A DNA stretch of 64,000 nucleotides, taken from Escherichia coli. GTDB lineage: Bacteria; Pseudomonadota; Gammaproteobacteria; Enterobacterales; Enterobacteriaceae. The notes below the pieces were generated by a model. The model made no database searches and was not told the origin of the DNA. It saw nothing but the letters and a program-made list of their open reading frames with translations. The stretch lies in the NCBI RefSeq assembly GCF_045037415.1, contig NZ_CP173438.1. One strand, written 5' to 3'. The position numbers and the translations under genes are program-made. Positions 1 through 53,024 of this stretch are shown in pieces (positions within the stretch are counted from its first letter, which is position 1; each line of letters begins with the position of its first letter).

Positions 1-2
1 AG

Positions 3-1918: not shown

Positions 1919-1920
1919 TC

Positions 1921-2616: not shown

Positions 2617-2624
2617 GAGAGGAA

Positions 2625-3617: not shown

Positions 3618-3668
3618 CGCCTGTTATTAACCTGTGGGTCGTAACAGACCCACTAATGGAGAAAGAAG

Positions 3669-4106: not shown

Positions 4107-4116
4107 GGTGATATTT

Positions 4117-4452: not shown

Positions 4453-4502
4453 GCCTCGCGGATGAGACAAGGGGCTTCGGCCCCTTTATTGCAGGAGTGT
4501 AT

Positions 4503-8905: not shown

Positions 8906-8917
8906 GGGGATAATAAG

Positions 8918-11431
8918 ATGCCAGTTGTACCAACAACATCGGGCCGTCAGGTTCAGAGCAGAGGGATTTCGACGCAGGGATTCTCATCGTTTCAGACGCC
9001 AAATGTCGGTGATGTACTTGGCGATGTTGCAGAGCAATATGCAGGTATTATTGCGCAGGCAAAACAGCGTGCGAATGTTGCTATGGCTCAGGATGCTTCT
9101 CTTAGCTTAAGCCAGATAAGCAGCGATCTGCTGAATAACCCTGAAACAGGTTTGCTTAACCTGAAAGGGAAAAATGCTATTGGAAAAGGTCAGGAGTATA
9201 CGCAGCAGTTTGATGCCCAGGTCGAGCAACTGGCTATGTCGCTGCCGGATGAACAGGCTCGTAATGCTTTCATGCAGCAGGCGCAGCAGCAGCGCATTCA
9301 GTTCACTACGCAGGCCGGGCGGCACGAGATAGGGCAAATAAATGCCTACGAAGAAGGCCAGTTTCAGGCGACGCTGCTGAACAATGGTAAAAATGCCGCA
9401 GCATTGTATGGCGACAACGCCGCATACGTATTGGCTAATAAGCAAACTTTCCAGCAAATTGAGGATTACGGCATTGCGCATGGCTGGAGCGACGAGCAAA
9501 TCCAGGCCAAGAAAATCGAGTTTAAAGAGAAGGTTGCTGATGCAGCATTGTCCCAGTGGTCGGCAAACAATGCGACCGCATTCATCCAAAGTAATGGCGA
9601 GTTAAGTGATACTGCTGCTGGAGCTAGCCGTGCTGTAGCAGATAGTGATTCTTCCGAGCGTGCCCGTGGCATACGCAACAATAACCCAGGAAATCTCGAA
9701 TACAGCAAAACCAATCCGTGGGTAGGCCAGACCGGTGATGATGGTCGATTTGCTAAATTCGAAACACCTGAACACGGGATTCGTGCATTAGGGCGGAACC
9801 TGATGTCGTATCAGAGGCAGGGTATTGATACCGTCAGCGAGATAATTAATCGCTGGGCACCGCCTACTGATAAAAATGACACTATGTCGTATATCAAAGC
9901 AGTGTGCGAACAACTTGGCGTTTCTGCTGATGAGCCTCTCGATGCATCTAATCCTGATACCCTGAAGGCGCTTTGTGCAGCCATTATCCATCATGAGAAC
10001 GGTAGCCAGCCATACAGTGATCAGCTGTTAAGTGCTGGTGTCAGTGCAGCACTTGGTTTATCAACAATTCCAACCAACACCAAACGCTATACCGGTAATG
10101 CAGCATTCGATGCGGCATCTCCTGAGGCGCAGGCAAGTTTTATGCGACAGGCGGATCAACTGCGTCGGCAGCAGCAGGCTGAATATAAAACGATGATTGA
10201 CAGCCAAGTTCGCGATGCGACAGCTGCGTATATGCGTGGCGTTGAATTTCCTAACCCACCTGGTGAGGCTGATTTTATTGCAGCTTATGGAGTCAGAGAA
10301 GGAAACCTGCGATATACCGAGTTCAGAAATACGCAAATCGCCGGACAGTATATAGGCTCTTTCCGCAACATGCCGACAAGCAGCATTACAGCATATGTTG
10401 AGCAATTACGCCCGGATACTGGTGAGACAGGGGAGGGTTATGCGGCACGAGCCGCTCTTTATGACAACGTTGTGTCGGCTGCAAGTCAGGTGATAAAGCA
10501 GCGACAGGCTGATCCTGTACAGTTCTCTCTTGCCGCCGGACAGGCAAAGCCTATCGACATGAGCAATAAGGATAACTTTGGACAGAGCGTTGCCTTGCGT
10601 GCTGCTCAGGTCAGTGACCTTGCTAAGTCATATGGCACTCCACTGACGTTCTTTTCCAAAGACGAGGCCAATCAGATCGGTGTTTTCTTTCGTAATGCGC
10701 CCGTTTCCCAACAGGCAGCATATCTCGATACCATCAGGCAGAGCACTGGTGGTGGGCAGGTGTATATGTCAGCACTACAGCAGATCAGTGCCAACGCTCC
10801 ATCTGCTGCCGTTGCCGGGATACTGATGGATAAGCCAGGTGGTATTTTGGCAGAAAAAAACTGGTTTAATCCGGATGTTTCCGTGTCTCCTGAAACCGCT
10901 GCGCAGACAATTCTTGCTGGCGCGGCGGCTCGTAAAGGTACTGATGACGCGAAAGGTATTCCGATGCCTAAAGATGCTGATCTTCGCCTTGAGTTTTCTG
11001 ACATGGTGAAGGATGCATTTGCTGGTGATGCTCAGGGGGCATCAATGGCATACGAGATCGCAAAGGACTATTACGCTGGTGTGATGGCGAAAAAAGGCGT
11101 GGTATCAGGCGAAATTGACAATGATATCTGGAAACAGGCTGTTAACGTAGCTACAGGTGGCGTGCATGACTATAACGGAATGGGGAATGTTCTTTTGCCT
11201 TGGGGAATGTCTGCAGAGCAATTCGATAAGCAGGTTAATCAGGTTTGGAATGAACAAGTTGTTGGCACAGGGATAAAAACACCGCCTGGTCAGTATGGTT
11301 TGCAAAGTTACGGCGATAGTCAGTACCTGGTGAAACTTGGTACTGGTTATCTGCTAAAAGATGATGGTTCTCCCGTTGTTCTTGATCTGACACAGAAGCG
11401 TCAGAGATTCTCCGGAGATATTCCGCAATGA
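8918..11431 (+). CDS. Large internal virion (ejection/core) protein, 837 aa
   Basis: RBS AAGGGGA; first of three consecutive large proteins equivalent to podovirus core proteins; contains a GIRNNNPGNL motif block. Confidence 0.6.
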   Translation: MPVVPTTSGRQVQSRGISTQGFSSFQTPNVGDVLGDVAEQYAGIIAQAKQRANVAMAQDASLSLSQISSDLLNNPETGLLNLKGKNAIGKGQEYTQQFDAQVEQLAMSLPDEQARNAFMQQAQQQRIQFTTQAGRHEIGQINAYEEGQFQATLLNNGKNAAALYGDNAAYVLANKQTFQQIEDYGIAHGWSDEQIQAKKIEFKEKVADAALSQWSANNATAFIQSNGELSDTAAGASRAVADSDSSERARGIRNNNPGNLEYSKTNPWVGQTGDDGRFAKFETPEHGIRALGRNLMSYQRQGIDTVSEIINRWAPPTDKNDTMSYIKAVCEQLGVSADEPLDASNPDTLKALCAAIIHHENGSQPYSDQLLSAGVSAALGLSTIPTNTKRYTGNAAFDAASPEAQASFMRQADQLRRQQQAEYKTMIDSQVRDATAAYMRGVEFPNPPGEADFIAAYGVREGNLRYTEFRNTQIAGQYIGSFRNMPTSSITAYVEQLRPDTGETGEGYAARAALYDNVVSAASQVIKQRQADPVQFSLAAGQAKPIDMSNKDNFGQSVALRAAQVSDLAKSYGTPLTFFSKDEANQIGVFFRNAPVSQQAAYLDTIRQSTGGGQVYMSALQQISANAPSAAVAGILMDKPGGILAEKNWFNPDVSVSPETAAQTILAGAAARKGTDDAKGIPMPKDADLRLEFSDMVKDAFAGDAQGASMAYEIAKDYYAGVMAKKGVVSGEIDNDIWKQAVNVATGGVHDYNGMGNVLLPWGMSAEQFDKQVNQVWNEQVVGTGIKTPPGQYGLQSYGDSQYLVKLGTGYLLKDDGSPVVLDLTQKRQRFSGDIPQ

Positions 11432-13230
11432 GTTACTTTGGCCTTAATCCAGTAAACCAGAATCAGCAGCTTGACGAAGCAGCATCAAATCCAGCTGGCT
11501 TTAACAGCGATGTTGGTTTTTTCGACAATGCTGTAGGAGCGGCATTGTCTGGTTTGTACTCCGGGCTGGTGGCAAAGCCAGATCAGTTGCTCTGGGCAGG
11601 GATGGATAAAATCGTATCCCCGATTGCTCAGTTTGTTAACGAAAACACCTCGCTCAATGACACTTCAGTTTCATACATTGCCGAGCAGAGAAAACTAGCA
11701 GAGCAGCAGGTTAAGCGGCTGACGCCTGATGCCGCGACAACCGGAACCGCCGGGCAGGTTCTTTATGGGTTGTTCGATATGGGCGGGCAGGCTGTTGTCG
11801 GTACAACGCTCGGTGGTCCTGTCGGAGGTGCAGCGGCGGTAACTTCGCTACAGGGTTTTTCTGAGTTTGAACGGCTGACAGCACAGGGTGTTGATTTCAG
11901 GACAGCGCAGGAAGCGGGATTAGTGCAGGGCATTACTGCTGGGGCCGGGACATTGATCCCTATGAGCCTCGGGTTACGTGCTGGTGGTGCGCTGGCGGAA
12001 GGTGTGGCGGCTCAGCTCGCGCGGACGGGTGAGAGTTCAGTGCGACGCGCCGCAGCAACAGCAGTACGTGCAACGCCAGATATTGCCTATGCCGCAGGTA
12101 CAAATATTGCGTTCGGTATGGCACAGCGTGGGCTTACTGCAAAAACGCTTCGTGATGGTGGCTATAGCGAAATGGCTAACCAGTATGATGTGTTGGATCG
12201 ACAGGCAATTGCTATTGATGCTGTTCTTGGGGTGGCGTTTGGTGGTGTCGGCAGATTTATTAACTCTCGCGGCGAGTCTACAAGCGCACCAAATTTTTCA
12301 CAAGTTGATGTTGATGCTGCACTGGCGGCGAATGCCGCTCATCATGCTGAAATTGATATTGCGCCCGGCGTGCCGATCAACGTGCTTTCGCGCAATTCTC
12401 ACATTCAGGCTCTGCGAAAAGCTATGTCTGATGTTAGCCAAGGGAGACCTGTAGACGTTGCCAGCATTGTTGAGTCTGCATCTTTCAGTGAAATTCCTGG
12501 GCGCAAGAGTCTGCTGTCTCAGGCAGTTAATGAGGCTCTGTCATCTGTAGATGATGGAGTAACGGCGCGCTCTATAGAAAATCGGTTGCTTGAAGAACAG
12601 GCCGCGCAGCTTTTGCCGCGTGGAGATAGACAGGTTTACCAGTCTGAAATCGCTAATAGCCAACGAATTATTGAAAATCTCACTGAACAGCGTGCACAAA
12701 TTCTTGCAGAAGATCCAACCGGTAGCGGTAAAGCTTTGTCTCGTGCTCGATCAGATAAACAGGCCAGACTTCGCGATATTGATCAACGAATCCGGCAGGC
12801 ACAAGAACGCCTGGAATTTTCCCGTAACGCGTTGGCACCGCACGAGCCTGGCGGTCAGTTTTTTGAAGCTCGAGCAGAACTGGCTCGGAGACAGCAGGCA
12901 GAAAGTGAACTTAATGCTCAGGCTGTTTCATTCTATAAAACAGCAGAGGTCAGGACGCCAGACGAAGTAGCTCCTTTTGAGCCTGATAAAATATTGCAAC
13001 AGGCAGAACAAAAAATGATGGCGGATCAGGCGGGAGATATTGATCTGCGCATAGCTGAAGACTCGCTGCTTGAATCACCTGACATGATAATCACCGTGCT
13101 GGATGATGATGGTAATCCACAATCGCGCAGCGCGCGTGAAGTACTGGATGAAGCGAACAGGGAAAGTGAGCAGGCAATACAGGATTCAAGCCTGTTTGAT
13201 GTAGCTGTGGCGTGTTTCTTGAGAGGTTAA
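11428..13230 (+). CDS. Internal virion protein, 600 aa
   Basis: ATGA overlap; Ala/Gly-rich N-terminal half, coiled-coil-like C-terminal half. Confidence 0.55.
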   Translation: MSYFGLNPVNQNQQLDEAASNPAGFNSDVGFFDNAVGAALSGLYSGLVAKPDQLLWAGMDKIVSPIAQFVNENTSLNDTSVSYIAEQRKLAEQQVKRLTPDAATTGTAGQVLYGLFDMGGQAVVGTTLGGPVGGAAAVTSLQGFSEFERLTAQGVDFRTAQEAGLVQGITAGAGTLIPMSLGLRAGGALAEGVAAQLARTGESSVRRAAATAVRATPDIAYAAGTNIAFGMAQRGLTAKTLRDGGYSEMANQYDVLDRQAIAIDAVLGVAFGGVGRFINSRGESTSAPNFSQVDVDAALAANAAHHAEIDIAPGVPINVLSRNSHIQALRKAMSDVSQGRPVDVASIVESASFSEIPGRKSLLSQAVNEALSSVDDGVTARSIENRLLEEQAAQLLPRGDRQVYQSEIANSQRIIENLTEQRAQILAEDPTGSGKALSRARSDKQARLRDIDQRIRQAQERLEFSRNALAPHEPGGQFFEARAELARRQQAESELNAQAVSFYKTAEVRTPDEVAPFEPDKILQQAEQKMMADQAGDIDLRIAEDSLLESPDMIITVLDDDGNPQSRSAREVLDEANRESEQAIQDSSLFDVAVACFLRG

Positions 13231-13235
13231 ATTAA

Positions 13236-15710
13236 ATGAGACAGGAATGTATACAAGCGGTCCAGCAGGCGGCGCAGCGCACGTTAACGGCGCGAGAAAT
13301 ACAGAACATTGAAGACCGCATTTATCGAAATATGCGCTCCATTGCTCGTGATGACCCGATGTCGTGGAGACAACTTTCCGAATCAGAGCGGCTATATCGT
13401 GCAGCACAATTGGCATCTGAAGAATTACAGCGAGAAGCGGCATTAAAGAAACGTCGTGTGGCCCTCACTATAGCCGCACGTCAGAGATTGGATAAATTTA
13501 TCAATAGCTATCAAGGGGCTGATGGGAAACTTGGCGCTCTTAACCGTACTATTGCTTTTAATGCAGACGGTAAATCGAATTTCCTCTCTGTTGAGTCCAG
13601 AACAAAAGCCACTCGTGATTATGCATTGAGTCAATTGCAAGAGGCATTTGAAGCAGTTGATCCTCGCTTTTTTGGCCTGTTTGAAGATGAAGCTGGCGTG
13701 CGTGACCTGGTATATGAAATGCGAGGGCAAAATACTGGCAATGCTAAAGCAAGAAAAGGTGCTAAGGCGTGGAGAGAAGTTACAGAGCTGCTGCGCCGCC
13801 GGTTTAATGATGCTGGTGGGGACATTGGCTATCTCGAAAACTGGGGGATCCCTCAACATCATTCTATGGAAAAGGTTGGGGCGGTATCAAAGGATAAGTG
13901 GGTTGGCGATGTTATAGGTAAGCTGGATCGCAAATATTATACCCGAGCCGATGGACAACTGATGAACGATGCCGAGTTGTCTGCATTTCTTGGAGAGGCT
14001 TATAACACGATAGCTACTGGTGGGCTGAATAAGCTTACTGATACCGGAATGCGAATTTCCGGCGCACGTGCTAACCGTGGTAATGCATCACGACAGATAC
14101 ATTTCAAAAATGCAGATTCCTATCTCCAATATCAACAACTTTATGGTGATCGCTCTCTATGGGAAATCATGGTCGGTCACCTGGAAGGTATCAGTAAAGA
14201 TATTGCTCTGGTGGAAACATATGGTCCAAACCCCGATCATGTTTTCCGCTCCCTTCTTGATCAGGTGAAGGCAGAAACGGCAACAGCTAACCCGAGTAAA
14301 ACCGGTAAAGTCGAGCGGCTGGCGAACAACACAGAGAATCTGTACAACTTTATTTCCGGAAAGACACAGCCTGTAGCGAATCCGCACATCGCGCGATGGT
14401 CTGACAATATCCGCAACTGGCTGGTTGCCAGCAGACTCGGATCCGCGTTGCTGTCATCGTTCTCTGATCTTGGAACCATGTATCTGTCTGCGAAGGTTAC
14501 CAACCTTCCAATGAACCAGTTATTCCGCAACCAGCTTGAAGCTATGGACCCAACGAACCGTACAGAACTTGCGCGGGCGCGCCGCGCTGGTCTGGCGATG
14601 GAATCTCTACTTGGCAGCGTTAACCGCTGGGCGATGGATAATATGGGGCCGTCTGTGTCTCGTTGGGCTGCAACGGCGGTAATGCGTGCCAGTGGGCTTA
14701 CAGCATGGTCAGATGCGCACAAGCGCGCCTATGGCGTAACCATGATGGGAAGCCTGGGAGAAGTAGTGTCACGGACACCAGACCTTCGTAGCCTCGATGA
14801 TTCTGATTTTCGTATCCTGAAAAGCAAAGGGATTACTGACACAGACTGGAGCGTATGGAAGCTGGCGCAACAGGAGGACTGGGGGAACGGCAATAATACG
14901 ATGCTGACACCGGAAAGCATTATGCGTATCCCTGATTCAGCAGTTAAACATCTTGGTGAGCCTGAACGCGTGAAATTTGAGGCAATGCGTAAACTGCTCG
15001 GTGCCGTAACTGAAGAAGTTGATATGGCTGTTATTACACCGGGAGCACGTGAGCAACTGATAACCGGTTCTGGTATTCAGCGTGGAACATGGAAAGGTGA
15101 ATTAACGAGAAGTGTTTTCCTGTTTAAATCGTTCCCTATCTCGGTGGTTATGCGTCACTGGTCACGCGCTATGGGTATGCCGTCTGCTGGTGGGCGTGCG
15201 GCATATATTGCGACGTTTATTGCCAGTACGACCATTCTTGGCGCTTTGTCGCAGCAACTTAACGACCTTGCGTCTGGTCGTAATCCTCGCGAGATGACAG
15301 GAGAAGATGCTGCTAAATTTTGGCTTGGTGCTCTACTGAAAGGTGGTGGTCTTGGCCTTTACGGTGACTTTTTATTGTCAGATCACACTAGGTACGGAAG
15401 CGGCGCGCTGGCGTCGATGCTTGGCCCGGTAGCTGGTCTGGTTGATGACGTAGTGAAGATTGCTCAGGGCATACCGTTAAATGCTGTGGAAGGGAAGAGT
15501 GAGCAGACTGGTGGTGATCTGGTGAAGCTGGGGAAAGGTTTGATGCCTGGTGCGAATCTCTGGTACTTGAAGGCGGCTCTCGATCACATGATCTTTAACC
15601 AGATGCAGGAGTATTTTTCACCAGGCTATTTGCGTAAAATGGAGCAACGTTCGAAGAAAGAGTTTAACCAGACATACTGGTGGCGACCACAGGATGTCAC
15701 TCCGCAATAA
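13236..15710 (+). CDS. Large internal virion (core/ejection) protein, 824 aa
   Basis: Third large protein of the internal-protein block. Confidence 0.6.
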   Translation: MRQECIQAVQQAAQRTLTAREIQNIEDRIYRNMRSIARDDPMSWRQLSESERLYRAAQLASEELQREAALKKRRVALTIAARQRLDKFINSYQGADGKLGALNRTIAFNADGKSNFLSVESRTKATRDYALSQLQEAFEAVDPRFFGLFEDEAGVRDLVYEMRGQNTGNAKARKGAKAWREVTELLRRRFNDAGGDIGYLENWGIPQHHSMEKVGAVSKDKWVGDVIGKLDRKYYTRADGQLMNDAELSAFLGEAYNTIATGGLNKLTDTGMRISGARANRGNASRQIHFKNADSYLQYQQLYGDRSLWEIMVGHLEGISKDIALVETYGPNPDHVFRSLLDQVKAETATANPSKTGKVERLANNTENLYNFISGKTQPVANPHIARWSDNIRNWLVASRLGSALLSSFSDLGTMYLSAKVTNLPMNQLFRNQLEAMDPTNRTELARARRAGLAMESLLGSVNRWAMDNMGPSVSRWAATAVMRASGLTAWSDAHKRAYGVTMMGSLGEVVSRTPDLRSLDDSDFRILKSKGITDTDWSVWKLAQQEDWGNGNNTMLTPESIMRIPDSAVKHLGEPERVKFEAMRKLLGAVTEEVDMAVITPGAREQLITGSGIQRGTWKGELTRSVFLFKSFPISVVMRHWSRAMGMPSAGGRAAYIATFIASTTILGALSQQLNDLASGRNPREMTGEDAAKFWLGALLKGGGLGLYGDFLLSDHTRYGSGALASMLGPVAGLVDDVVKIAQGIPLNAVEGKSEQTGGDLVKLGKGLMPGANLWYLKAALDHMIFNQMQEYFSPGYLRKMEQRSKKEFNQTYWWRPQDVTPQ

Positions 15711-15721
15711 AAGGAGATATG

Positions 15722-15844
15722 ATGGTTCAAATAACTTTTATTGTACTAATATGTGCAGCGTTTTTATGCTATTCATACATTTTGATAAAAATGGGTTTCA
15801 ATTGGAATCTCTGTTGCGTGCAGCGGCATGGTTCGGCTTTGTAG
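15722..15844 (+). CDS. Possible small hydrophobic protein (40 aa) in AT-rich moron
   Basis: AAGGAG RBS at 15711-15716 with 5-nt spacer to ATG; hydrophobic product; a competing 62-aa ORF (15694-15882) uses another frame. Confidence 0.3.
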   Translation: MVQITFIVLICAAFLCYSYILIKMGFNWNLCCVQRHGSAL

Positions 15845-15929
15845 TATTAGGAATTGTATTGTTCGGAAGAATAATAAAATAACTAGTTAATTTGTGGATT
15901 GGTGCTGTTTTTCCATGATAGGGGTAATT

Positions 15930-16310
15930 ATGAGAAAAGTATTTTTGATTTTTGGATTTATGCTTCTCGTTGGATGCCAGTCAGCTGCACAGTTTGAAAG
16001 AAATATGCTTACGTGGCGCGGGCAGAGTATAGACGCAATGGTTCAGCAGTGGGGGTATCCTCAGGGAGAGCTTACATCTCCAGATGGAAACAGAGTGTAT
16101 GTTTACTCAAGCTCTGGTAGTTATAACGTACCACAAACCACAACGTATAATACTACGTCTAATCTAATTGGTAATACTATATATTCAAACACATACGCAA
16201 CAACTGATGGCGGTTATACACTCCATTTCAGTTGCTCTGTTTACGTTGAGTTTGGTGCTGATAAGATTATTAAAAATGTTACATGGCGCGGTAATAATTG
16301 CGTTGCGTGA
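15930..16310 (+). CDS. Lipoprotein (moron), 126 aa
   Basis: Signal peptide MRKVFLIFGFMLLVGC with lipobox LLVGC; AT-rich context; terminator directly downstream. Confidence 0.7.
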   Translation: MRKVFLIFGFMLLVGCQSAAQFERNMLTWRGQSIDAMVQQWGYPQGELTSPDGNRVYVYSSSGSYNVPQTTTYNTTSNLIGNTIYSNTYATTDGGYTLHFSCSVYVEFGADKIIKNVTWRGNNCVA

Positions 16311-16319
16311 CATGTCACA

Positions 16320-16343
16320 GGCCGCTTTCGCGGCCTTGTTTTT
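16320..16343 (+). terminator. Rho-independent terminator after lipoprotein gene
   Basis: GGCCGC-TTTC-GCGGCC hairpin followed by TTGTTTTT. Confidence 0.7.
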
Positions 16344-16503
16344 AACGAATGCCACCGCCACCCGGGCGGGAATCCGCAGAACGCCCACCGCAGCGGGAGC
16401 CGTCAGCAGCAGTGTCGCTGTCGTGCTGACAACGACCGGCAAAGGCCTGAGTTGAAGCTACCAGAGACAACAAAACGAACAGTGCAGCAAATGCTTTTTT
16501 CAT
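16342..16503 (-). CDS. Possible small secreted peptide (53 aa)
   Basis: Signal-peptide-like N-terminus MKKAFAALFVLLSLVASTQAFA; GC-rich low-complexity mature part with two Cys; weak RBS. Confidence 0.3.
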   Translation of the reverse strand: MKKAFAALFVLLSLVASTQAFAGRCQHDSDTAADGSRCGGRSADSRPGGGGIR

Positions 16504-16575
16504 TGTGAAATTTCCATCTATAAGCCACCTCAATGTGGCGTCAATGAGTGTAGCACTGACTTTTGTTTCGTCCAC

Positions 16576-16597
16576 AAAAAAGCCCGCGCTGCGGGCT
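16576..16597 (-). terminator. Rho-independent terminator of the reverse cassette
   Basis: GCCCGC-GCT-GCGGGC hairpin followed by a U-run on the minus strand, directly after the 16602 stop. Confidence 0.7.
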
Positions 16598-16601
16598 TCT
16601 A

Positions 16602-17234
16602 TTAATGCAGTTTATCTTTGCTTATAACCAGTAGTCTGTGGGTATGCACATCTTTATCACTGCCCCAACAGAAATCAGCCCACTGGCTATAGAAATCATC
16701 CCATGATGTCATGAAGCTAAGAGGTCTATCTTCTTCAGAGCCATCTGAAACGTATACATTATATCCTGGGGTGTTTATAGCCCAAGAAATCATTCTTTCC
16801 CAGAATCTTCTCCCATCGATTGTTTGTTGCTCATCAGATACAACGATCGCATATTGCTCTAGGAAGAACTGAAAAAAAATCTGAGGCAAACCATGAACAG
16901 CACGGTCATGAATAACATTAGGCGTACGCCATACCATGATCTGCGTACATGTTCTTTTGGCTTCGACGATATCTTCCCGAAAGATTAACTTAACCGCATA
17001 CACCGTTTCTGGAGTATCGCTGGTAGTAATCATTCTGTAATGATCGCCATTACAAGATTTTACAAGGCGATAACCATAAGGTGTTGTGAATCCCGGAAGA
17101 ACGAAATCAACCACACCTTTCGCTAAGTAGCTTTCGGTGTGACTAGTGTTCTTCTCAGACATGTTCAGTTTTCTATCGAAATCTGCTTCTGGGATAATGT
17201 ATGGCATCGCTTTTCTTGTTGTATTTGTTCTCAT
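16602..17234 (-). CDS. Uncharacterised cargo protein, 210 aa
   Basis: Strong RBS GGGAGG 5 nt before ATG; own sigma70-like promoter and operator upstream; no family recognised; AT-rich. Confidence 0.75.
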   Translation of the reverse strand: MRTNTTRKAMPYIIPEADFDRKLNMSEKNTSHTESYLAKGVVDFVLPGFTTPYGYRLVKSCNGDHYRMITTSDTPETVYAVKLIFREDIVEAKRTCTQIMVWRTPNVIHDRAVHGLPQIFFQFFLEQYAIVVSDEQQTIDGRRFWERMISWAINTPGYNVYVSDGSEEDRPLSFMTSWDDFYSQWADFCWGSDKDVHTHRLLVISKDKLH

Positions 17235-17293
17235 TTCGTCCTCCCATGTTTGGCTACAGGACGCGTTTTGAAGGGAAGATTAAAAATGCTTTC

Positions 17294-17308
17294 TTACCCT
17301 TGAGGTAA
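17294..17308. promoter_or_regulatory. Operator-like palindrome TTACC-N5-GGTAA (copy 1) overlapping the start region of the 16602-17234 gene
   Basis: Perfect 5-bp inverted repeat with 5-bp spacer; abuts the predicted -10. Confidence 0.5.
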
Positions 17309-17336
17309 TAGTACGCTATTCACCCCCAGTCTGCAA
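17308..17336 (-). promoter_or_regulatory. Sigma70-like promoter for the 210-aa gene
   Basis: Minus-strand TTGCAG-N17-TACTAT, about 75 nt upstream of the ATG. Confidence 0.45.
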
Positions 17337-17380
17337 TCTGTACAGAATTATTTAAAGGCACATCCCTGTGCCGCCGCCCG

Positions 17381-18037
17381 TCAGAAGAACCCTGCCTTGT
17401 CGTTGATGTACTCCGCGTGCGTCTGGATATCACGCAGGCATTTGCTCACACCAACGATGTAGCAGAACATGGTGGTCAGCTCCGCCGCCGCGCCCGATAC
17501 GTCGTGCCCGTCGTCCTGTAACTGGTTCAGCAGATTCATCAGCAGTGAGTTCTCCGTCAGGCCGAGAACACCAGACGGCGAGTGAATCAGGCTGCGGTAG
17601 CCGGGCTTCAGTGGGGCACTGTATTCTTTTTTGTCTTCCAGCTTGATCGCCTCCATAATGGCGGGCATGAAGCCTGACAAGACCTTCTCCACTTTTGTTT
17701 CTTGTTGTCTTAAACGTTTCTCGCATTCAATGAAGTAGCGTCGCACCTGGCGACCTTTTTCGTTACGCTCGACCATCGCCAGCTCTTTGGCTGTATCAAG
17801 GGTGAGGTGGTACTCTTTGCGGTTGTGGCCGCCTCTACCAGATGTTTGCTTTCCCAAATTGGAAAGCAAAATATAGTCTTGATTTTCAATGAATTCGTAT
17901 TCTGATATGCGATTTGTAATCCATGCTGCAAACACCTTTTTAACACCTAAAAAAGCGTGCAGATCGCGGGCATTACAAAGTAGGGCTGTTTCGTTAGATA
18001 TAGTGCCGTTGAATACGGGGATGAGTTGAGCGTTCAT
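17381..18037 (-). CDS. Antirepressor-like protein: AntA-type N-terminal domain plus C-terminal domain paralogous to the small SOS-controlled protein
   Basis: GGAG RBS; N-terminal motif [27 protein letters not shown] typical of AntA/AntB antirepressor domains; C-terminal 70 aa about 40% identical to the 18357-18614 product. Confidence 0.65.
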
Positions 18038-18196
18038 GATGGCGTCTCCACTTAGCGAATTACATCACCACCGCTGAGAACCAATCAGATGGTGGTGAAC
18101 TGAACGGAGTTGGTCTTACCGGCCTAAGTGGTACCGGCGTCCTTTCGGACCCCCATTCAGCCCACCATAATTCTGGCATGACTGTGCTATACGCAT

Positions 18197-18218
18197 AAAA
18201 AAACCACGTCTGGCGTGG
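18197..18218 (-). terminator. Putative rho-independent terminator between the small SOS-controlled gene and the antirepressor gene
   Basis: CCACG-N5-CGTGG hairpin followed by seven U on the minus strand; short stem. Confidence 0.4.
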
Positions 18219-18308
18219 TATGCGCCACTTAGTAATCCGGGAGAACCAATCCCGGCACTGGATTTTGCCAGTGCCCGATTACTATGGCACAAGAGGAGTG
18301 CGATGTAA

Positions 18309-18327
18309 ATTTACCGCAAAGGTAAAT
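18309..18327. promoter_or_regulatory. Operator-like palindrome ATTTACC-N5-GGTAAAT (copy 2)
   Basis: 7-bp inverted repeat with 5-bp spacer, same core as copies 1 and 3. Confidence 0.45.
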
Positions 18328-18356
18328 ATAAGCACTCCATTTGGTAATTTCAAACC

Positions 18357-18614
18357 TTATCTGGTTTGTTTTCGTAATTGTTCGGCACAATAGTCGAGAT
18401 GTGTTTGCAGATCCTGCATAGACATCTGTGAGCTGGTGACGTAGTTAATCAGTGCAGTCAGTTCGGCAAGTGGGCCATCGACATTAAATCCATCCTTATC
18501 GAGATCCCGGAGTAATTTCATCAAGTGCGATCCCTCCACCAGTGACCTGACGCCTCCCGGCGTGTGAATCCTTTCGGTAAATCCGTCTTCCAGTGGATAG
18601 TGATACTGCTGCAT
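18357..18614 (-). CDS. Small SOS-box-controlled protein (about 85 aa), candidate SOS-inducible antirepressor
   Basis: GGAGAA RBS before ATG at 18614; LexA box 19 nt upstream; homologous to C-terminus of the adjacent AntA-like protein; ORF track extends to 18737 but upstream part covers promoter and operator. Confidence 0.6.
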   Translation of the reverse strand: MQQYHYPLEDGFTERIHTPGGVRSLVEGSHLMKLLRDLDKDGFNVDGPLAELTALINYVTSSQMSMQDLQTHLDYCAEQLRKQTR

Positions 18615-18633
18615 CTTATCTTCTCCATGCAAT

Positions 18634-18653
18634 AACTGTATATTTATACAGTA
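18634..18653. promoter_or_regulatory. LexA (SOS) box
   Basis: AACTGTATATTTATACAGTA matches the E. coli LexA consensus TACTGTATATATATACAGTA at 18 of 20 positions, with CTGT-N8-ACAG intact. Confidence 0.75.
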
Positions 18654-18689
18654 GCAAATAATTTGTTTGCTATCCAGCACGTTTTGCAA

Positions 18690-18706
18690 ATTACCTGAAA
18701 GGTAAT
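18690..18706. promoter_or_regulatory. Operator-like palindrome ATTACC-N5-GGTAAT (copy 3) upstream of the LexA box
   Basis: Perfect 6-bp inverted repeat with 5-bp spacer. Confidence 0.5.
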
Positions 18707-18809
18707 ATCTATTCGTATTTACAGCCTTTCTATCCATATGTGGTTTTCCAGGTAATAGAATAACCAGATATGCGGCGCAACGGGTGCTGCGACTATCTGG
18801 AGATTTAAC

Positions 18810-21461
18810 ATGACGGTTTCAACCGAAGTTGACCACAACGAATACACCGGTAACGGAGCTACGACATCATTTCCGTATACCTTCCGTATTTTCAAAAAAT
18901 CCGACCTGGTTGTTCAGGTGTCTGACCTGAACGGGAACGTAACAGAATTGGTTCTGGATACTGACTACACAGTAACCAATGCTGGAGGATATAATGGCGG
19001 TAATGTAATTCTGTCGAAGGCGTTGGCTAACGGTTATCATATTTCTATATCACGAGAGCTCCCGGTTACGCAGGATACTGATTTGCGTAATCAGGGTAAG
19101 TTCTTCGCTGAGGTACATGAAGACGCGTTCGATAAACTGACAATGCTTATTCAAAAGTGTTTTTCATGGATGAGGTTAGCACTTATAAAACCAAGCATTC
19201 TGGCTAACTATTATGATGCAAAAAATAATAAGATATCAAATCTAGCAAATGCCACTGACAGAAACGATGCTGTCAATAAAGGTTATGTTGATGATCTTTT
19301 TACTGGAGGTGTAACGCCTACATCTAACAGCGCTAAAAACGATATTTTTACAAATCACCAAAGAAAGATTGTAGCTACGATGCCGCTTCTTTTTCCTGAA
19401 TATGATGCGATTATGGCTGCTAACCCGTCAGCAACTTATATGTATCCTCAAGGATTCTGCGTTAGCGAAGATTTGATATACATCACTTATCCATTTGAGC
19501 CTAAACAGACGAATAATGTCGTCGCAGTATTTAACATATCTGGTATTTATCAAGGTTATTTCTATGTTCAGGCTGGCGGCCCAGGCTTCGCTGCTGAAGG
19601 AATCGTGGTTACGTCAGACTATGGCCCCAAAAAAATGTTTGTTGGTCACACAAACGGAATACTGCGTGAATTTAATATGGAGGGGGCATTATACGGAAGC
19701 AATCTGCCTCTTGTACAAAACCATGATGTTGGATTATTCAACCAGTTCAGCTACAGAAGAGGTATATGGCTCGTTGAGCAGAATGCGCCAGAAGTAGGAC
19801 AGAAAATCACAAGAACTGTACTTGCAGTGTTCGACAGTGGTTTCAATCGCCTGTCAACTATAACGCTGCCGTTACATGATGTTGGGTATGTAACTAAAAG
19901 CACCTCACCTTATGCGCCTTATTTCAACAAGCGTCAGGGTATTGCGGTAGGTGATAACTACTTTGTCTGCGGCTATGGCGGCTTCATAGCTGATGGGGCA
20001 GGAAGCGCAGGATATAACGAATATCAGGGCAGCAAAGTTTTTAACCCTGACGGTACAAAGCGAACTGAATCAATGCTTCATCCTCAGGCCATGATGGATT
20101 TAATGAAAGCCGCAGGATTGAACGTCACTCGCATAGAAAATGAAGGCGTTTGTGTTTCTCAGGATGGAAAATCCATTTATTCACTTTACATTCATCAGGA
20201 AAGAACTGGCTCTGAACCTTACAATTCAGGTTTGGTTATTTTCGAAGATTTCTCCACTGATAAAGATGCTATCGATTTTACACCTGCATCCAGGCTTTAC
20301 CGCGGATTTGATATCGATCACGCGAGCATTGGGGTATATCCCCGTAGTGCGAAGGGGATTGTTAACCCTGTAGATGGTACGTTGTTCACTAACATGACTG
20401 AAATTCTTCGCTATATGCAGGAGATGAGTCAGAAGGCATTTAATTTTTACACAGGGACTGTCAGCATTGCTGATATATCTGGCGTGGCAATCCCTTCCAG
20501 CACATATGTTGAAATACTGAATGCGAATAATCAGACTTTTATAGTCAACTATTATTCATCTGATAGTGGCATTAGTTATTTGGTTGCAACTAATCCTTCT
20601 GGTGACTTTGTATTTGTGCGCCAGCGACCGGCACAGTGGGCATCTAACTTAACCATTCAGCAAAACGCAGATCCTGATACAAACCAATTAAACCGCATCA
20701 CTGCATCATCATATGCCGGTGCAACTACAAACTCTCAGAAAATATTGGTCCTTGACCAGCAGGCTACAGCTAGCGCAAATAGCTTGGTATTGGGCGGTAG
20801 TTCTTCTGTGTTTAGGTCTGCCACCACGGTGGATATTGCATGCAACAGCGACCCGACAGCATTGGGAGGAACCATACGCTGGCGGTTTTATGATACAGGT
20901 CTTCGCCCGTTTGCTGACAATACCTATAATTTTGGTCAGGCATCGTTTCGTATTAAAGACGCCTACTTTGCAAATGCCCCAACCGTTTCATCAGATGCCA
21001 CGCTGAAAACCAATCCCGAGGCAATATCAGATTTAAGTGAAATGCTTTCTTCTGATAGAGACAGCATTCTTGATGCCTGGGGCGATATTTCTGTTGTGGC
21101 GTATCGATGGCTCGACGCTATATCCATGAAGGGCGATGGTGCCAGATGGCATTTTGGCGTCATGGCTCAGCAGGTAAGGGATGTATTCTTGGCGCACGGA
21201 ATTGATGGAACCAGATTTGGCCTTCTTTGCTATGACGAGTGGGATGATATTTTTGAGCCGGTAATCGCGACTAAAGAGATTACCGATACGTCTGGTGAGT
21301 TGGTCACCGTCGAATATGACACCGGAGAACAGAGGCTGGTTAAAAAAGCGGGTAGTTCATGGGGTATACGGCCTGACCAGTGCGCTTGGCTTGAGGCTGC
21401 ATATCAGCGCCGTCGATGCGATCGTATTGAAGAGCGACTCGAACTATTGGAATCAAAATAA
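18810..21461 (+). CDS. Tailspike protein with C-terminal intramolecular chaperone (peptidase S74-like) domain, 883 aa
   Basis: RBS CTGGAG; conserved-looking N-terminal virion-anchor region; C-terminal block (RWHFGVMAQQVRDVF...) resembles the self-cleaving chaperone domain of endosialidases and tail fibres. Confidence 0.75.
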   Translation: MTVSTEVDHNEYTGNGATTSFPYTFRIFKKSDLVVQVSDLNGNVTELVLDTDYTVTNAGGYNGGNVILSKALANGYHISISRELPVTQDTDLRNQGKFFAEVHEDAFDKLTMLIQKCFSWMRLALIKPSILANYYDAKNNKISNLANATDRNDAVNKGYVDDLFTGGVTPTSNSAKNDIFTNHQRKIVATMPLLFPEYDAIMAANPSATYMYPQGFCVSEDLIYITYPFEPKQTNNVVAVFNISGIYQGYFYVQAGGPGFAAEGIVVTSDYGPKKMFVGHTNGILREFNMEGALYGSNLPLVQNHDVGLFNQFSYRRGIWLVEQNAPEVGQKITRTVLAVFDSGFNRLSTITLPLHDVGYVTKSTSPYAPYFNKRQGIAVGDNYFVCGYGGFIADGAGSAGYNEYQGSKVFNPDGTKRTESMLHPQAMMDLMKAAGLNVTRIENEGVCVSQDGKSIYSLYIHQERTGSEPYNSGLVIFEDFSTDKDAIDFTPASRLYRGFDIDHASIGVYPRSAKGIVNPVDGTLFTNMTEILRYMQEMSQKAFNFYTGTVSIADISGVAIPSSTYVEILNANNQTFIVNYYSSDSGISYLVATNPSGDFVFVRQRPAQWASNLTIQQNADPDTNQLNRITASSYAGATTNSQKILVLDQQATASANSLVLGGSSSVFRSATTVDIACNSDPTALGGTIRWRFYDTGLRPFADNTYNFGQASFRIKDAYFANAPTVSSDATLKTNPEAISDLSEMLSSDRDSILDAWGDISVVAYRWLDAISMKGDGARWHFGVMAQQVRDVFLAHGIDGTRFGLLCYDEWDDIFEPVIATKEITDTSGELVTVEYDTGEQRLVKKAGSSWGIRPDQCAWLEAAYQRRRCDRIEERLELLESK

Positions 21462-21558
21462 GACCAAATTTAGGTAATTATTATCCGTAAATGGTTTATT
21501 GTGTATGATGGACCTCATCTTCTAAGGGGGTTTTTATGCACAATAAACGGTGGTTACC

Positions 21559-21960
21559 ATGAATGGCACGGTTACGGCGGATTCACTGAATCAAGGGTTA
21601 AGCTTGGGTGCGCTGGCCTCTGTCGTCTACGGCGTTCCGCCAGAGGTGGCTCTCGGTGCTCTGGCTGGTGCGGTAATATTTGTTACCTCTGCTGTAGAGT
21701 ATCCTGTTCGTCGTCGTGTACTCTTGTCGATACTCAGCTTTCTTTGTGGTCTTCTCTTTTACAAACCAACAACATCAATTCTTATCGGAATAGCCAGCAT
21801 GATACCTACCATCACGCAGGACTCTTTCGAGAAAGGGATTGTTTTCTCTGCTGGCGCATTCGTGTCAGCAATTGTCGCAGTGCGAATTGGTATATGGCTC
21901 TATCACCGTTCTGATAATCCACGCCAGTTAATTCCTGGGAGAAAAGGCGATGGTAACTAA
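21559..21960 (+). CDS. Membrane protein with about four TM segments (holin or antiholin candidate)
   Basis: Hydrophobic helices; immediately upstream of holin-like and endolysin genes. Confidence 0.45.
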   Translation: MNGTVTADSLNQGLSLGALASVVYGVPPEVALGALAGAVIFVTSAVEYPVRRRVLLSILSFLCGLLFYKPTTSILIGIASMIPTITQDSFEKGIVFSAGAFVSAIVAVRIGIWLYHRSDNPRQLIPGRKGDGN

Positions 21961-22258
21961 TGAGCTTGTTTTGCTTATCACCAATGCAATTATTTGTACT
22001 GGCATAGCAATTCGCGTTGTCACATTCCGGCGTAACGGCTCTCAACATCGAAGATGGGGAGGGTGGCTTGCTTATTTCCTTATTGTTGCTGCGGCCAGTA
22101 TTCCTGTTCGTGTCGCCTATGCAATCTGGTTACGTACGCCAATGGCTGTGGATTTATCTGAGGTCATTATCAACGCTGTCATGCTTGCCGCGGTTATTAA
22201 AACACGCGGTAACGTTGTTCAGATTTTCAAAACATCGAGGTCTAAACATGGAGATTAA
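21950..22258 (+). CDS. Putative holin (102 aa, about three TM segments)
   Basis: Small membrane protein with charged C-terminus directly before the endolysin. Confidence 0.55.
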
Positions 22259-22877
22259 ACAATTCCAGCGAGCTGCTGGTATTAGCGAGGCTCTGGCCGC
22301 ACGCTGGTTCTCGCATATAACTTCTGCGATGAAAGAGTTTGGTATCAGAAAACCCGAAGATCAGGCAATGTTTATTGCTCAGGTCGGGCATGAGTCTGGT
22401 GGCTTCACCAGGTTGCAGGAGAATTTCAATTACAGCGTCACCGGACTGGCTAACTTCGTTCGTGCCGGTCGTCTTACTCAGGGACAGGCTAACGCATTGG
22501 GTCGTCGTGCAGGCGAGCCACCATTGCCACCTGAGCGCCAGCGTGCGATTGCCAATCTGGTGTACAGCAAACGCATGGGGAACAATGCCTCTGGTGATGG
22601 CTGGAATTACCGTGGCCGCGGACTTATCCAGATTACCGGTTTGAATAACTATCGTGATTGCGGAAACGGCCTGAAAGTGGACCTGCTGGAGAATCCTGAA
22701 CTGTTGGCGCAGGACGAATACGCGGCTCGTAGCGCGGCGTGGTTCTTCTCCAGCAAAGGTTGCATGAAGTATACCGGCGATATTGCACGTGTAACTCTGA
22801 TTATCAATGGTGGCAGGAATGGCATCGACGACCGGCGCGTGCGGTACATCACTGCCAGTAAGGTGCTGGCGGTATGA
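22248..22877 (+). CDS. Endolysin, glycoside hydrolase family 19-like
   Basis: GAGG RBS then ATG at 22248; motif [12 protein letters not shown] and [12 protein letters not shown] typical of GH19 lysozymes; ORF track start at 22017 is an in-frame upstream extension. Confidence 0.75.
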
Positions 22878-23371
22878 TCTGGGCATTCGCAAAAGCATAC
22901 CGGAAACAGTTGGTTGTCATGGCGATGCTTGCTGTTCTGGTCATATCAGGAGTTGTTGCCTGGAATGTGCATGGCAGCCGCCAGTACGATGCCGGGTATG
23001 CTCAGGCGAAGGAAGATCAGAAACAGGCTGATGATAAGTTAAGGTCACAGCGTGAGCAGGAGAAAACACAAATTGAACGTGAAGCACAATCCCGTATCGA
23101 TGCGGCGCGTGCTGATGCTGAGTATGCTAATTCCGCTGCTGACAGCATGCGCGCCGAGCTTGACAAAACCAGGCGGCTCGCCGAACACTATACCGGATCT
23201 TTCCCCCCTGGCACGCCAGCCAGCAAGGTCATCGGTGTGCTCGCCGACATGCTTGAAGAAAGCAACCGAGTTTACAACGCAACAGCAGCTGAGGCTGAAA
23301 AGTATCGTATCGCAGGGGAATTCTGCGAGCAGCAATACGATTCACTGAAGAAGCAAAAATCGTGGCACTGA
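22874..23371 (+). CDS. Rz-like i-spanin
   Basis: ATGA overlap with endolysin; N-terminal TM segment then charged coiled-coil region. Confidence 0.65.
23100..23348 (+). CDS. Rz1-like o-spanin lipoprotein embedded in the Rz gene (+1 frame)
   Basis: Lipobox LLTAC followed by a Pro-rich sequence; fully embedded in the spanin gene; start codon uncertain. Confidence 0.5.
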   Translation: MRRVLMLSMLIPLLTACAPSLTKPGGSPNTIPDLSPLARQPARSSVCSPTCLKKATEFTTQQQLRLKSIVSQGNSASSNTIH

Positions 23372-23458
23372 TTTCCGGTGACGGTATATAAAACGGTACG
23401 GTGAAAATCAGGTTACAGAAAGTTGTTACCAGTCAATTGGTTATGCATGCCGTAAATA

Positions 23459-49015: not shown

Positions 49016-49390
<375 letters not shown>

Positions 49391-49752
49391 TTATGAGAAT
49401 AAATACTCATTTAAGGGTGAAAACATTTTGCCTGCAAATGATTATCAGGAAATATAACATTATCGAAGTATTCAAATTAACAACTATTAAATAACATTAA
49501 ACATTTTTAACGTAAACATTAAGAATATTCATCTTGTTATCTGTCTGTATTTTAACCAGAATTAAATCAGTATTAGATGCCGTATGAATATCTCGAAATG
49601 TTGCGGTGTATCACATACAAATCATCACCGCAGGACCATAGTATTTACATAAGGTTTGTCCCCCGGAGGTAGTCATCGCAGCAATCGAGTAAATTAGCTT
49701 CACCACGGTATATTGTTTCCGTAGAATACCCATAATTATAAGAGAGGTTGTT

Positions 49753-49812
49753 ATGATTGAACGTGAACTGGGGAACTGGAAAGACTTTATCGAAGTTATG
49801 CTTCGTAAGTAA
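49753..49812 (+). CDS. ypfM: Small protein YpfM (19 aa)
   Basis: AGAGAGG RBS then ATG; MIERELGNWKDFIEVMLRK; not in ORF track because below size cutoff. Confidence 0.7.
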   Translation: MIERELGNWKDFIEVMLRK

Positions 49813-49877
49813 TTCCTGAGACAAAGTACAAACAGCAAGAACCCGCTGAGCAGGTTCTTAATCGGAAAGTTGAAAAG

Positions 49878-49905
49878 GGCGACACATTGGCATGTCGCCT
49901 TTTTT
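49878..49905 (+). terminator. Rho-independent terminator between ypfM and the 3' end of acrD
   Basis: GGCGACA-N8-TGTCGCC hairpin followed by TTTTTT. Confidence 0.75.
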
Positions 49906-49910
49906 ATTGC

Positions 49911-52900
49911 TTATTCCGGGCGCGGCTTCAGCGGGAAGCGGCGGCGCACCAGCACAAAGAACAGCGGCACGAAGTAAATAGCCAGAATAGTGGCCGAAAT
50001 CATCCCGCCCATTACGCCAGTACCCACCGCATGCTGACCACCGGAACCGGCACCTGTGCTGGTTGCCATTGGCAATACGCCGAAGATAAATGCCAGCGAG
50101 GTCATCAGAATCGGGCGTAAACGCTGACGGCAGGCGTGGAGCGTCGCTTCAAACAGGTCGTGGCCTTTTTGGTTCATCTCGTTAGCAAACTCGACGATCA
50201 GGATGGCGTTTTTCGCCGATAAACCAATGACCGTTAACAGGCCCACCTGGAAGTAAACATCGTTTTCCAGCCCGCGCATCCAGGTTGCCAGCAGCGCGCC
50301 GATAACCCCCAGCGGCACGACCAGCATTACCGAGAACGGCACCGACCAGCTTTCATACAGCGCAGCCAGACACAGGAATACCACCAGCAAGGAAATGGCG
50401 TACAGCGCCGGAGCCTGCGCGCCGGAAAGCCGCTCCTGATACGACATCGCCGTCCACTCCAGACCAAAGCCGTTTGGCAACTGCTTCACTAACGATTCCA
50501 TAATATCCATCGCCGTACCGGTACTGACCCCCGGTGCGGCTTCCCCAACAATCTCAACCGCAGAATAACCGTTATAGCGTTCCAGACGCGGCGAGCCTGT
50601 CTCCCAGCGTGAGGTCGCGAAAGCAGAGAAGGGCACCATGCCGCCATCTTTATTTCGGACATACCAGAGATTGATGTCATCTGGCAGCATGCGATACGGC
50701 GCAGCTGCCTGCACATAGACTTTCTTCACGCGACCGCGATCCATAAAGTCATTCACATAGCTCGAACCCCAGGCGGTTTGCAGTGTGTCGTTAATATCGT
50801 CGATAGCAACGCCCAGCGCCTGAGCTTTACGCTGGTCGATATCAATCTGCAACTGCGGACTGTCGTCGAGGCCGTTATGGCGCACACGGGTTAGCTCCGG
50901 GTTTTCCGCTGCCAGCGCCAGCAACTGGTTTCGTGCTGCCATCAGCGCATCGTGACCCGCTCCAGCGTGGTCCTGCAACTCCATATCAAAACCCGCAGAA
51001 CTACCAAGACCGCTAATTGCTGGCGGGCTGCTGGCGATAACGCGAGCTTCTTTAATCTTGTTAAACGCCTTCGTTGCACGCTCGATAATGGCAAACGAGG
51101 TGCCGGTCTTACTGTCGCGTTCGCTCCAGTCTTTCAGGCGGATAAACATTCGCGCCACGTTTTGCCCGTTCCCCCCAGGGCCAGAACCCACGGTGGCAAA
51201 CACCGACATGATGTTGTCTTTTTCATGGGTGAAGTAATATTTCTCGATTTGCTCAACGACTTTCAGGGTCTGTTGCTGGGTTGAACCGCTGGGCAACTGT
51301 ACCGAGGTAGTAAACATGCCACGGTCTTCCAGCGGTAAGAACGACGTCGGCAAACGCAGGAACAGGAACACCATGCCGCCAAGCAGCAGGACATAAATCA
51401 CAATCCAGCGCAGGCTACGGTGGAGAATTTTCGCCACCCCTTTTTCGTAGCGTTCGGCGTTGCGGTTAAACATCTGGTTAAACCAGGCAAAAAAGCCTTT
51501 TTGCCCGTGATGCTCACCTTTTTTCAGTGGCTTAAGTAGTGTGGCACACAGAGCCGGAGTGAGGATCATCGCTACCAGTACTGACAGCACCATCGCCGCA
51601 ACAATGGTAATAGAGAACTGGCGATAGATGGCACCGGTGGTGCCGCCGAAGAAGGCCATTGGCACAAATACCGCCGAAAGCACCATCGCAATCCCGACCA
51701 GTGCCCCCTGGATCTGCCCCATCGATTTACGTGTGGCTTCGCGAGGAGTGAGTCCTTCCTCACTCATAATACGTTCGACGTTTTCCACCACCACGATGGC
51801 ATCATCCACCAGCAGACCGATCGCCAGCACCATCGCGAACATGGTTAAGGTGTTGACGCTATAGCCGAAGGCATAAAGCACCGAGAAGGTTCCCATCAAC
51901 ACCACCGGCACGGCGATAGTGGGTATCAGCGTGGCGCGGAAGTTTTGCAGGAACAGATACATAACGAGGAAAACCAGGGCGATAGCTTCCAGAAGCGTTT
52001 TCACCACGTCTTCAATGGAGGCTTTTACAAAAGAGGTGGTTTCATACGCCACCTTGTATTCCAGTCCGTGTGGAAAATACTGCGCCAGCTCGTCGAGACG
52101 ATTGAGCACCAGCTCCGCTGTCGCCATTTCGTTCGCGCCGGAGGCCAGTTTTACCCCCAGCCCGGAGGCTGGCTTACCATTGAAGCGGCTAAGATAATCG
52201 TATTTCTCCGCCCCCATTTCGACGGTGGCGACATCGCCCAGCCTTACCTCTGAGCCGTCCTGATTCACCCGCAAGGTGATATCGCGGAACTGTTCTGGTG
52301 TTTGCAGCAGTGACTGGGCGTTAATGGTGGCGTTGAGCGCCTGCTTATCGACGGAAGGCGTACCACCAAGTTGCCCAACCGCAATCTGCGCGTTCTGTGA
52401 TTCAATGGCATCGGTGACATCTTTAGCCGTCATCTGGAAACTGTTGAGTTTCGCCGGGTCCAGCCAGATACGCATGGAATATTGCGAACCATAGGCATCG
52501 ATATCCCCGACGCCATTCACGCGGCTTAACGGGTCCTGAATATTACTGGCAACATAATCGGCAATATCCTGTTTATCCATCGAACCATCGGTAGAGACGA
52601 AGGCAATGGTCAGAATGTTGGTATCGCCGGTTTTACGCACCGTCACGCCCTGATTTTGCACCGCCTGCGGTAACTTTCGCATGGCTGATTGCAGCTGGTT
52701 TTGTACTTGCTGCACGGCTTCGTCCGGATCGGTGCCTGCTTTAAAACTTAACGTGACAGATGCCTGACCGGTGCCGCTGCTCTGAGATGACATATACATC
52801 AGATTATCGAGGCCGGTCATATTTTGCTCGATAACCTGGGTCACGGTGTTTTCCAGCGTCTGGGCCGATGCGCCGGGATAGTTAGCGGTCACTCGCACAT

Positions 52901-53024
52901 TCGGTGGCGCGAGATCGGGGTATTGTTCAACGGGCAATGAAAAAATCGCCAGGGTACCTGTCAGACACAACAGGATTGCCAGCACCCAGGCAAAAATGGG
53001 GCGATCAATAAAGAAATTCGCCAT
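49911..53024 (-). CDS. acrD: RND aminoglycoside efflux pump AcrD
   Basis: 1037-aa RND transporter. Confidence 0.95.

Follow-up and report, generated by a model that had tools for sequence, protein, structure and literature searches.

AzuC is a 28-aa small protein that forms an amphipathic helix and has GlpD as its partner, and base-pairing activity has been demonstrated for AzuCR. AcrZ, the 49-aa partner of the RND pump AcrB, is a transmembrane helix whose gene is not next to acrB. Annotations of E. coli have included ypfM itself since the early 2000s, the NCBI pipeline names the gene routinely, and Hemm et al. reportedly confirmed YpfM synthesis in 2008 with a chromosomal SPA tag.

Direct detection of the peptide comes from a 2025 proteomics study, in which top-down mass spectrometry (MS) covered 100% of the YpfM sequence with N-formyl-Met retained, and in which DIA and PRM against synthetic peptides detected it as well (PMC12529367). 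PRM detection was most consistent in low-Mn2+ minimal medium, and Schmidt et al. 2016 is cited there as an earlier detection. According to Sittka et al. 2008 (PMC2515195), the Salmonella RNA STnc250 lies between acrD and yffB, contains the ypfM ORF and corresponds to the small mRNA of ypfM. Northern blots in that work reveal a stable short RNA whose expression depends on growth phase, and Hfq co-immunoprecipitation enriched it 4-fold (24 versus 6 reads). One review calls ypfM 'of unknown function' (PMC12093975), and dapE plasmids that suppress an ftsEX null mutation carry the gene as a mere passenger.

Identity and setting of ypfM

An initial annotation of the window (the whole 64,000-nt stretch of E. 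coli DNA analysed here) had proposed a 19-codon gene, ypfM, in the yffB-acrD spacer, with a good ribosome-binding site before it and hairpins after it, and had described it as too short for the ORF track. This description holds in every part. Direct reading places AGAGAGG ahead of an ATG at 49753-49755, which opens 19 sense codons translated as MIERELGNWKDFIEVMLRK and closed by TAA at 49810-49812; the stretch reads ...ataAGAGAGGttgttATGATTGAACGTGAACTGGGGAACTGGAAAGACTTTATCGAAGTTATGCTTCGTAAGTAA. The gene sits between yffB (49016..49372) and acrD (49911..53024), both on the minus strand, in a spacer of 538 nt (49373..49910), and dapE lies further upstream. At 19 aa the product falls under the 20-aa minimum of the ORF lister and is missing from its output. 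Two hairpins follow the stop codon, the second being a terminator with its T-run (Table 1).

The name is equally secure. RefSeq/PGAP annotates a feature over exactly these 60 nt, "ypfM: protein YpfM" (WP_001386977.1), and the WP_001386977.1 coding sequence of strain SK1144 maps exactly onto the same positions. Against the NCBIfam equivalog NF033843 (small_YpfM), whose curated cut-off is 33 bits, the product scores 59.2 bits (E = 2.4e-16) over profile positions 1-19 of 19. The context agrees with this membership, as ypfM is divergent from yffB-dapE and convergent with acrD here and in 70 other loci. A Pfam search with a 20-residue version of YpfM gave no match, and a PDB sequence search with the same version returned no resembling chain. 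The initial annotation had named conservation and translation as what could count against it if both failed to appear; both are present, the former patterned by codon and the latter as published MS. ypfM is almost certainly a real translated gene. It is an already known one, so the observation is correct and not new.

Genome comparison shows that the gene is part of the core chromosome. Of 5426 complete E. coli genomes, 5425 contain the 538-nt spacer, with ypfM annotated under it. An IS1 family transposase splits the spacer in two in CMZE063 and NZ_OZ040950, where it is otherwise identical and ypfM is still annotated. One additional spacer copy sits on a plasmid.

The wider surroundings belong to a particular strain background. 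Window positions 1..23458 form a prophage like phiV10 and phiv142-3, which aligns to Escherichia phage phiv142-3 with 79% coverage and 97.8% identity. Among its genes are those for tail fibre, antirepressor and endolysin, and its right junction is just before yfgI. From 23459 on, gene order is collinear with that of strain SK1144, in which this prophage is missing, and identity to that strain is 99.996% from 23459 to 49927. The junction segment 15000-25000 occurs in just 11 of 5426 complete E. coli genomes. With its phiV10-like prophage, the window is not K-12 as such. The further suggestion of the initial annotation, by which short ORFs of the prophage cargo region could also be genuine, is a separate speculation on DNA more than 26 kb from ypfM, and ypfM, belonging to the core chromosome, lends it no support.

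Table 1. Features in and around ypfM, in window coordinates.
Feature	Position	Strand	Basis and remarks
Sigma-70 promoter: -35 TTCACC 49699-49704, 17-nt spacer, -10 TAGAAT 49722-49727	49699..49727	+	Consensus scan, 9/12 matches
Shine-Dalgarno AGAGAGG, 5 nt upstream of ATG	49741..49747	+	Direct reading; unpaired in centroid RNA fold
ypfM CDS, 19 codons + TAA, product MIERELGNWKDFIEVMLRK	49753..49812	+	Translation, RefSeq annotation, NF033843, pN/pS, published MS (PMC12529367)
Hairpin inside CDS end, CGAAG-uuaug-CUUCG	49791..49805	+	RNA fold; first helix of Rfam STnc250 model
Rfam RF01409 STnc250 'Hfq binding RNA' match, 3' part of ypfM mRNA	49792..49911	+	35.0 bits
3'UTR hairpin, stem AAGAACC/GGUUCUU	49836..49860	+	Fold; only in Escherichia sequences
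Intrinsic terminator hairpin, A-run and T-run at flanks	49871..49906	.	Scan and covariation; acrD stop codon 49911-49913
Overlapping ORF, 20 aa	49757..49819	+	ORF list
Overlapping ORF, 75 aa	49611..49838	minus	ORF list
Overlapping ORF, 59 aa	49645..49824	minus	ORF list

Conservation and coding selection

Comparison with other species used 80 loci anchored on the YffB protein rather than on YpfM, each searched for ypfM by tblastn of the 19-mer. In 72 of these loci the ORF lies upstream of yffB in divergent orientation. Carriers include Escherichia, Citrobacter, Enterobacter, Klebsiella, Kosakonia, Cedecea and Buttiauxella, and the most distant in the sample are Yersinia nurmii, Dickeya undicola and [Erwinia] mediterraneensis. 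With the window included, 73 sequences were compared: all 73 start with ATG, 71 have exactly 19 codons, and nearly all carry AGAGAGG or a GAGG-core variant at equal spacing.

Variation within these sequences follows the reading frame. Mean column entropy, taken over 55 distinct nucleotide versions, is 0.20 at both the first and the second codon position and 0.67 at the third, and variable sites occupy 15 of 19 third, 8 of 19 first and 5 of 19 second codon positions. With the window sequence as reference, pS is 0.412 and pN 0.053, giving a pN/pS of 0.128. The conserved peptide pattern is M-[IV]-[ED]-x-E-[LVM]-x-x-W-K-[DES]-F-I-[ED]-x-M-L-R-K. Within E. coli, an identical ypfM 60-mer occurs in 4787 of 5424 records, compared with 3737 of 5391 and 3821 of 5423 for the flanking 60-mers. 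Five control ORFs of the spacer, none of which overlaps ypfM, are recognisable in at most the two Escherichia loci. Judged by these substitutions, ypfM is under purifying selection with a codon pattern, and its start, stop and ribosome-binding site are conserved, as in a translated small gene. The data support the view that the peptide product, and not merely the act of translation, is under selection.

Two orthologues depart from the standard length. That of Yersinia nurmii (L072, 957..898) has 20 aa, MVDVELNTWKEFIESMLRKA, and scores 32.1 bits against NF033843; because this lies just below the 33-bit cut-off, the NCBI naming rule probably misses it. In Lelliottia nimipressuralis (L028, 2111..2022), codon 19 is altered and the stop is lost, leaving a 30-aa ORF, MIERELGNWKDFIEDMLRNDLQEELQEHLI, a change suggestive of a 1-nt deletion or of faulty assembly.

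Transcript architecture

A promoter scan gave TTCACC-17-TAGAAT as its only promoter-like site. A genomic SELEX study of RpoD constitutive promoters assigns this pair of hexamers to ypfM, and its catalogue also marks H-NS binding between ypfM and yffB (PMC3946193). Both hexamers align across genera, as does the 22-nt ypfM leader, and transcription would be expected to start near 49734. The predicted RNA folds better than shuffled versions (z = -2.7), and its ribosome-binding site and AUG are unpaired in the centroid fold. The half of the spacer nearer yffB has a core (~49400-49600) of 20-26% GC, and a weak MarA ChIP site has been reported in the Salmonella ypfM<>yffB spacer.

Three hairpins lie in or behind the coding sequence, and their evolutionary records differ. 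For the hairpin inside the CDS end, a separate constraint at the RNA level was considered and is unsupported, since synonymous sites there vary about as elsewhere in the ORF. The 3'UTR hairpin keeps its stem in E. albertii with a changed loop, and other genera have unrelated sequence at that place; across genera, the 3'UTR from the ypfM stop codon to the terminator shows no conservation of sequence or length. The terminator hairpin is a stem-loop with a U-run, as in Rho-independent termination, which is predicted here from the sequence, and its pairing has been maintained in evolution. Among 60 distinct orthologous sequences, 93.6% of cells are paired and 9 of 12 pairs have both sides changed; none of 500 shuffles attains these values, and structures slid along the alignment are 38-65% paired. 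Its T-run extends to within 5 nt of the stop codon of acrD. Given the symmetric A and T runs and this position beside the acrD stop, the hairpin most likely serves both ypfM on the plus strand and convergent acrD on the minus strand.

In the proposed layout, the conserved sigma-70 promoter would give rise to a monocistronic transcript of ~175-180 nt, running from ~49734 to ~49910. It would consist of a leader of ~19 nt with a strong, unstructured Shine-Dalgarno sequence, the 19-codon ORF and a 3'UTR of ~100 nt, and would end at the conserved intrinsic terminator abutting the stop codon of convergent acrD.

The 3' part of this mRNA matches the Rfam family RF01409 over the full model length (1-94; E = 1.8e-5), with a score that does not reach the gathering threshold of 42. 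It falls short because a 37-nt segment of the E. coli 3'UTR stands in place of 13 nt in the model. On this match, the E. coli ypfM 3' part is homologous to RF01409 and would have diverged through an insertion in the 3'UTR. The Rfam label 'Hfq binding sRNA' understates the mRNA nature of STnc250.

Gene neighbourhood

Synteny analysis shows strong linkage of ypfM to acrD. Where acrD is adjacent, 70 of 71 loci carry ypfM; of the 7 assessable loci that lack acrD, 6 have no ypfM and one has it. In the Dickeya undicola locus (L080), ypfM (MIEVELNNWKSFIDAMLRK) adjoins yffB, a cold-shock-protein-like gene and crcB lie downstream, and acrD is missing. In Yersinia nurmii, ypfM adjoins acrD and is ~1.5 kb from yffB, with two other ORFs between. 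Erwinia endophytica (L081) has acrD directly upstream of yffB and no recognisable ypfM. Since the Dickeya undicola and Erwinia endophytica arrangements differ, ypfM, as read from these gene orders, moves or is lost independently of both neighbours. Synteny names no partner for YpfM: the Dickeya, Yersinia and Erwinia endophytica cases point different ways.

In two other loci the region holds different genes. Enterobacter sp. CC120223-11 (L062) lacks acrD and ypfM upstream of yffB and has a putative membrane protein there. Two paralogous ORFs in this locus (101..505 and 1823..2209) contain MPNIKDLNFDEIALVSGG, which resembles a double-glycine leader such as that of precursors of microcins or class II bacteriocins. 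In locus L054, the corresponding region upstream of yffB carries transposase-like ORFs.

Alternative explanations

Short ORFs are common in this DNA: 47 of at least 20 aa overlap the 3-kb region, three of them lie across ypfM (Table 1), and one antisense frame is free of stops across the 57 nt in 73 of 73 sequences. It is nevertheless hardly conceivable that ypfM is a chance ORF or a non-coding sRNA, or that one of the overlapping ORFs is the true gene. The distance between stops in the antisense ORFs differs among species (30-114 and 8-132 codons), which marks them as by-products, and full-length conservation of the 75-aa ORF is not seen. The +1-frame ORF starts with TTG without a Shine-Dalgarno sequence, and the wobble positions of ypfM are its second codon positions. 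The length, start codon and ribosome-binding site of ypfM itself are conserved across genera, its pN/pS is low, and the peptide has been sequenced by MS (PMC12529367). Conservation pattern and published MS together refute both a chance ORF and an overlapping ORF as the true gene. A leader peptide or attenuator was also considered and rejected, as the next gene, acrD, is convergent and the transcript is closed by a terminator.

Granted that ypfM encodes a peptide, its RNA or the act of translating it could still be what counts. The STnc250 transcript might encode YpfM and act in addition as an Hfq-dependent base-pairing regulator, in the manner of SgrS/SgrT or AzuCR/AzuC. The partial RF01409 match, the Hfq enrichment and stable, growth-phase-dependent RNA in Salmonella, the strong fold of the transcript and a terminator hairpin with U-run, the usual Hfq-binding module, all fit this dual role. 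It is unlikely all the same: bona fide sRNAs of the same table are enriched 20-27-fold, the authors themselves reclassified STnc250 as a small mRNA (PMC2515195), and the RF01409 match stays below the gathering score. Moreover, the 3'UTR is unconserved across genera, so no conserved seed is visible outside the ypfM CDS, and variation within the CDS fits a codon pattern. Very unlikely is a role in cis, in which translation of ypfM matters for its own sake, for example by tuning read-through of the shared terminator and antisense transcription into the acrD 3' end. Such a role would agree with the tail-to-tail arrangement, with the T-run so close to the acrD stop and with the frequency of ypfM beside acrD (70/71 loci, against 1/7 assessable loci without acrD); MS detection alone is compatible with it as well, given that the leader peptides TnaC and MgtL are also MS-detectable (PMC12529367). 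That co-occurrence, however, is confounded by phylogeny and adjacency, as one indel removes both genes, and Dickeya keeps ypfM without acrD. No same-strand gene follows ypfM, and its stop codon lies ~60 nt upstream of the terminator stem, beyond masking by a terminating ribosome, with unconserved sequence between. The amino acids, charged residues included, are preserved over the full length, which is more than an open frame would need.

A working model for YpfM

Taken together, ypfM is very probably a genuine, independently transcribed, monocistronic small-protein gene with a conserved promoter, a conserved terminator and an N-formylated product. The peptide accumulates in cells with its N-formyl-methionine kept. 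How it acts is a more evenly balanced question, and the chances stand at about half that YpfM is a helix acting in trans by binding a protein.

Sequence periodicity is what suggests the helix. As an alpha-helix, YpfM has an Eisenberg hydrophobic moment of 0.546, compared with 0.266 +/- 0.134 for shuffles, 3.1% of which reach 0.546; the case for helicity consists of this periodicity argument, and the shuffle test of amphipathicity is only moderately significant. Residues I2, L6, W9, I13 and M16 fall within 45 degrees of the hydrophobic direction, and the variable positions 4, 7, 8 and 15 lie on the opposite face, 115-155 degrees away. Conserved Gly7 and common Gly15, both poor helix formers, speak against a helix. 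Charges balance (4 acidic, 4 basic), leaving the peptide net neutral. YpfM does not have the features of a small membrane protein: there is no hydrophobic stretch of ~18-20 residues, charged residues make up 8 of the 19, and the Eisenberg hydrophobicity averages -0.118.

In the trans-acting model, the most likely one, YpfM would be a soluble, net-neutral amphipathic alpha-helix that docks onto a larger protein. The hydrophobic face (I2, L6, W9, I13, M16, L17), together with flanking conserved charged residues, would provide the docking surface, and positions 4, 7, 8 and 15 would be on a solvent-exposed face that can vary freely. A narrower proposal makes YpfM a dedicated accessory of its neighbour acrD, either as an amphipathic helix that docks onto the cytoplasmic side of the AcrD pump and tunes its activity, in a pairing like that of AcrZ with AcrB, or through a ypfM transcript that is also an Hfq-dependent or antisense regulator of the acrD 3' end. 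This is quite unlikely; the near-obligate tail-to-tail linkage and common terminator are compatible with it and do not demonstrate it.

The case also offers practical lessons. ypfM serves as a positive control showing that an ORF track with a floor of 20-60 aa misses real genes. Exact conservation of length and ribosome-binding site, variation at third positions, and a promoter and terminator of its own are what set a true 19-codon gene apart from dozens of chance ORFs. Mutagenesis of YpfM could be planned from the conservation map, in which the core M-[IV]-[ED]-x-E-[LVM]-x-x-W-K-x-F-I-[ED]-x-M-L-R-K is invariant and a single face of the helix varies.

Comparison with known systems

YpfM resembles AzuC in several ways. 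Both are very small, non-transmembrane, predicted amphipathic peptides; both come from a short monocistronic transcript that was first catalogued among sRNA candidates and is associated with Hfq; and both were detected in the same PRM study at low Mn2+ (PMC12529367). The two have no sequence similarity, however; a partner (GlpD) and base-pairing activity are known for AzuC only, and YpfM is net neutral. The likeness to AcrZ is one of setting: in each case an enterobacterial genome encodes a small protein and also an RND pump, and in 70 of 71 loci the immediate neighbour of ypfM is acrD, a gene for such a pump. Unlike AcrZ, YpfM has no hydrophobic segment of membrane-spanning length.

Two further comparisons concern the same locus in other strains and species. 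STnc250 of Salmonella occupies the same acrD/yffB locus and is the same transcript, its model comprising the CDS end, stop codon and terminator; the E. coli version is set apart by a 37-nt 3'UTR segment with its own hairpin, in place of the 13 nt of the Salmonella-based model. Compared with E. coli K-12, the strain background of the window differs by the phiV10-like prophage 26 kb away. ypfM itself is no different: its 19-aa sequence, its position between yffB and acrD, the strands, the promoter hexamers and the annotation are all alike.
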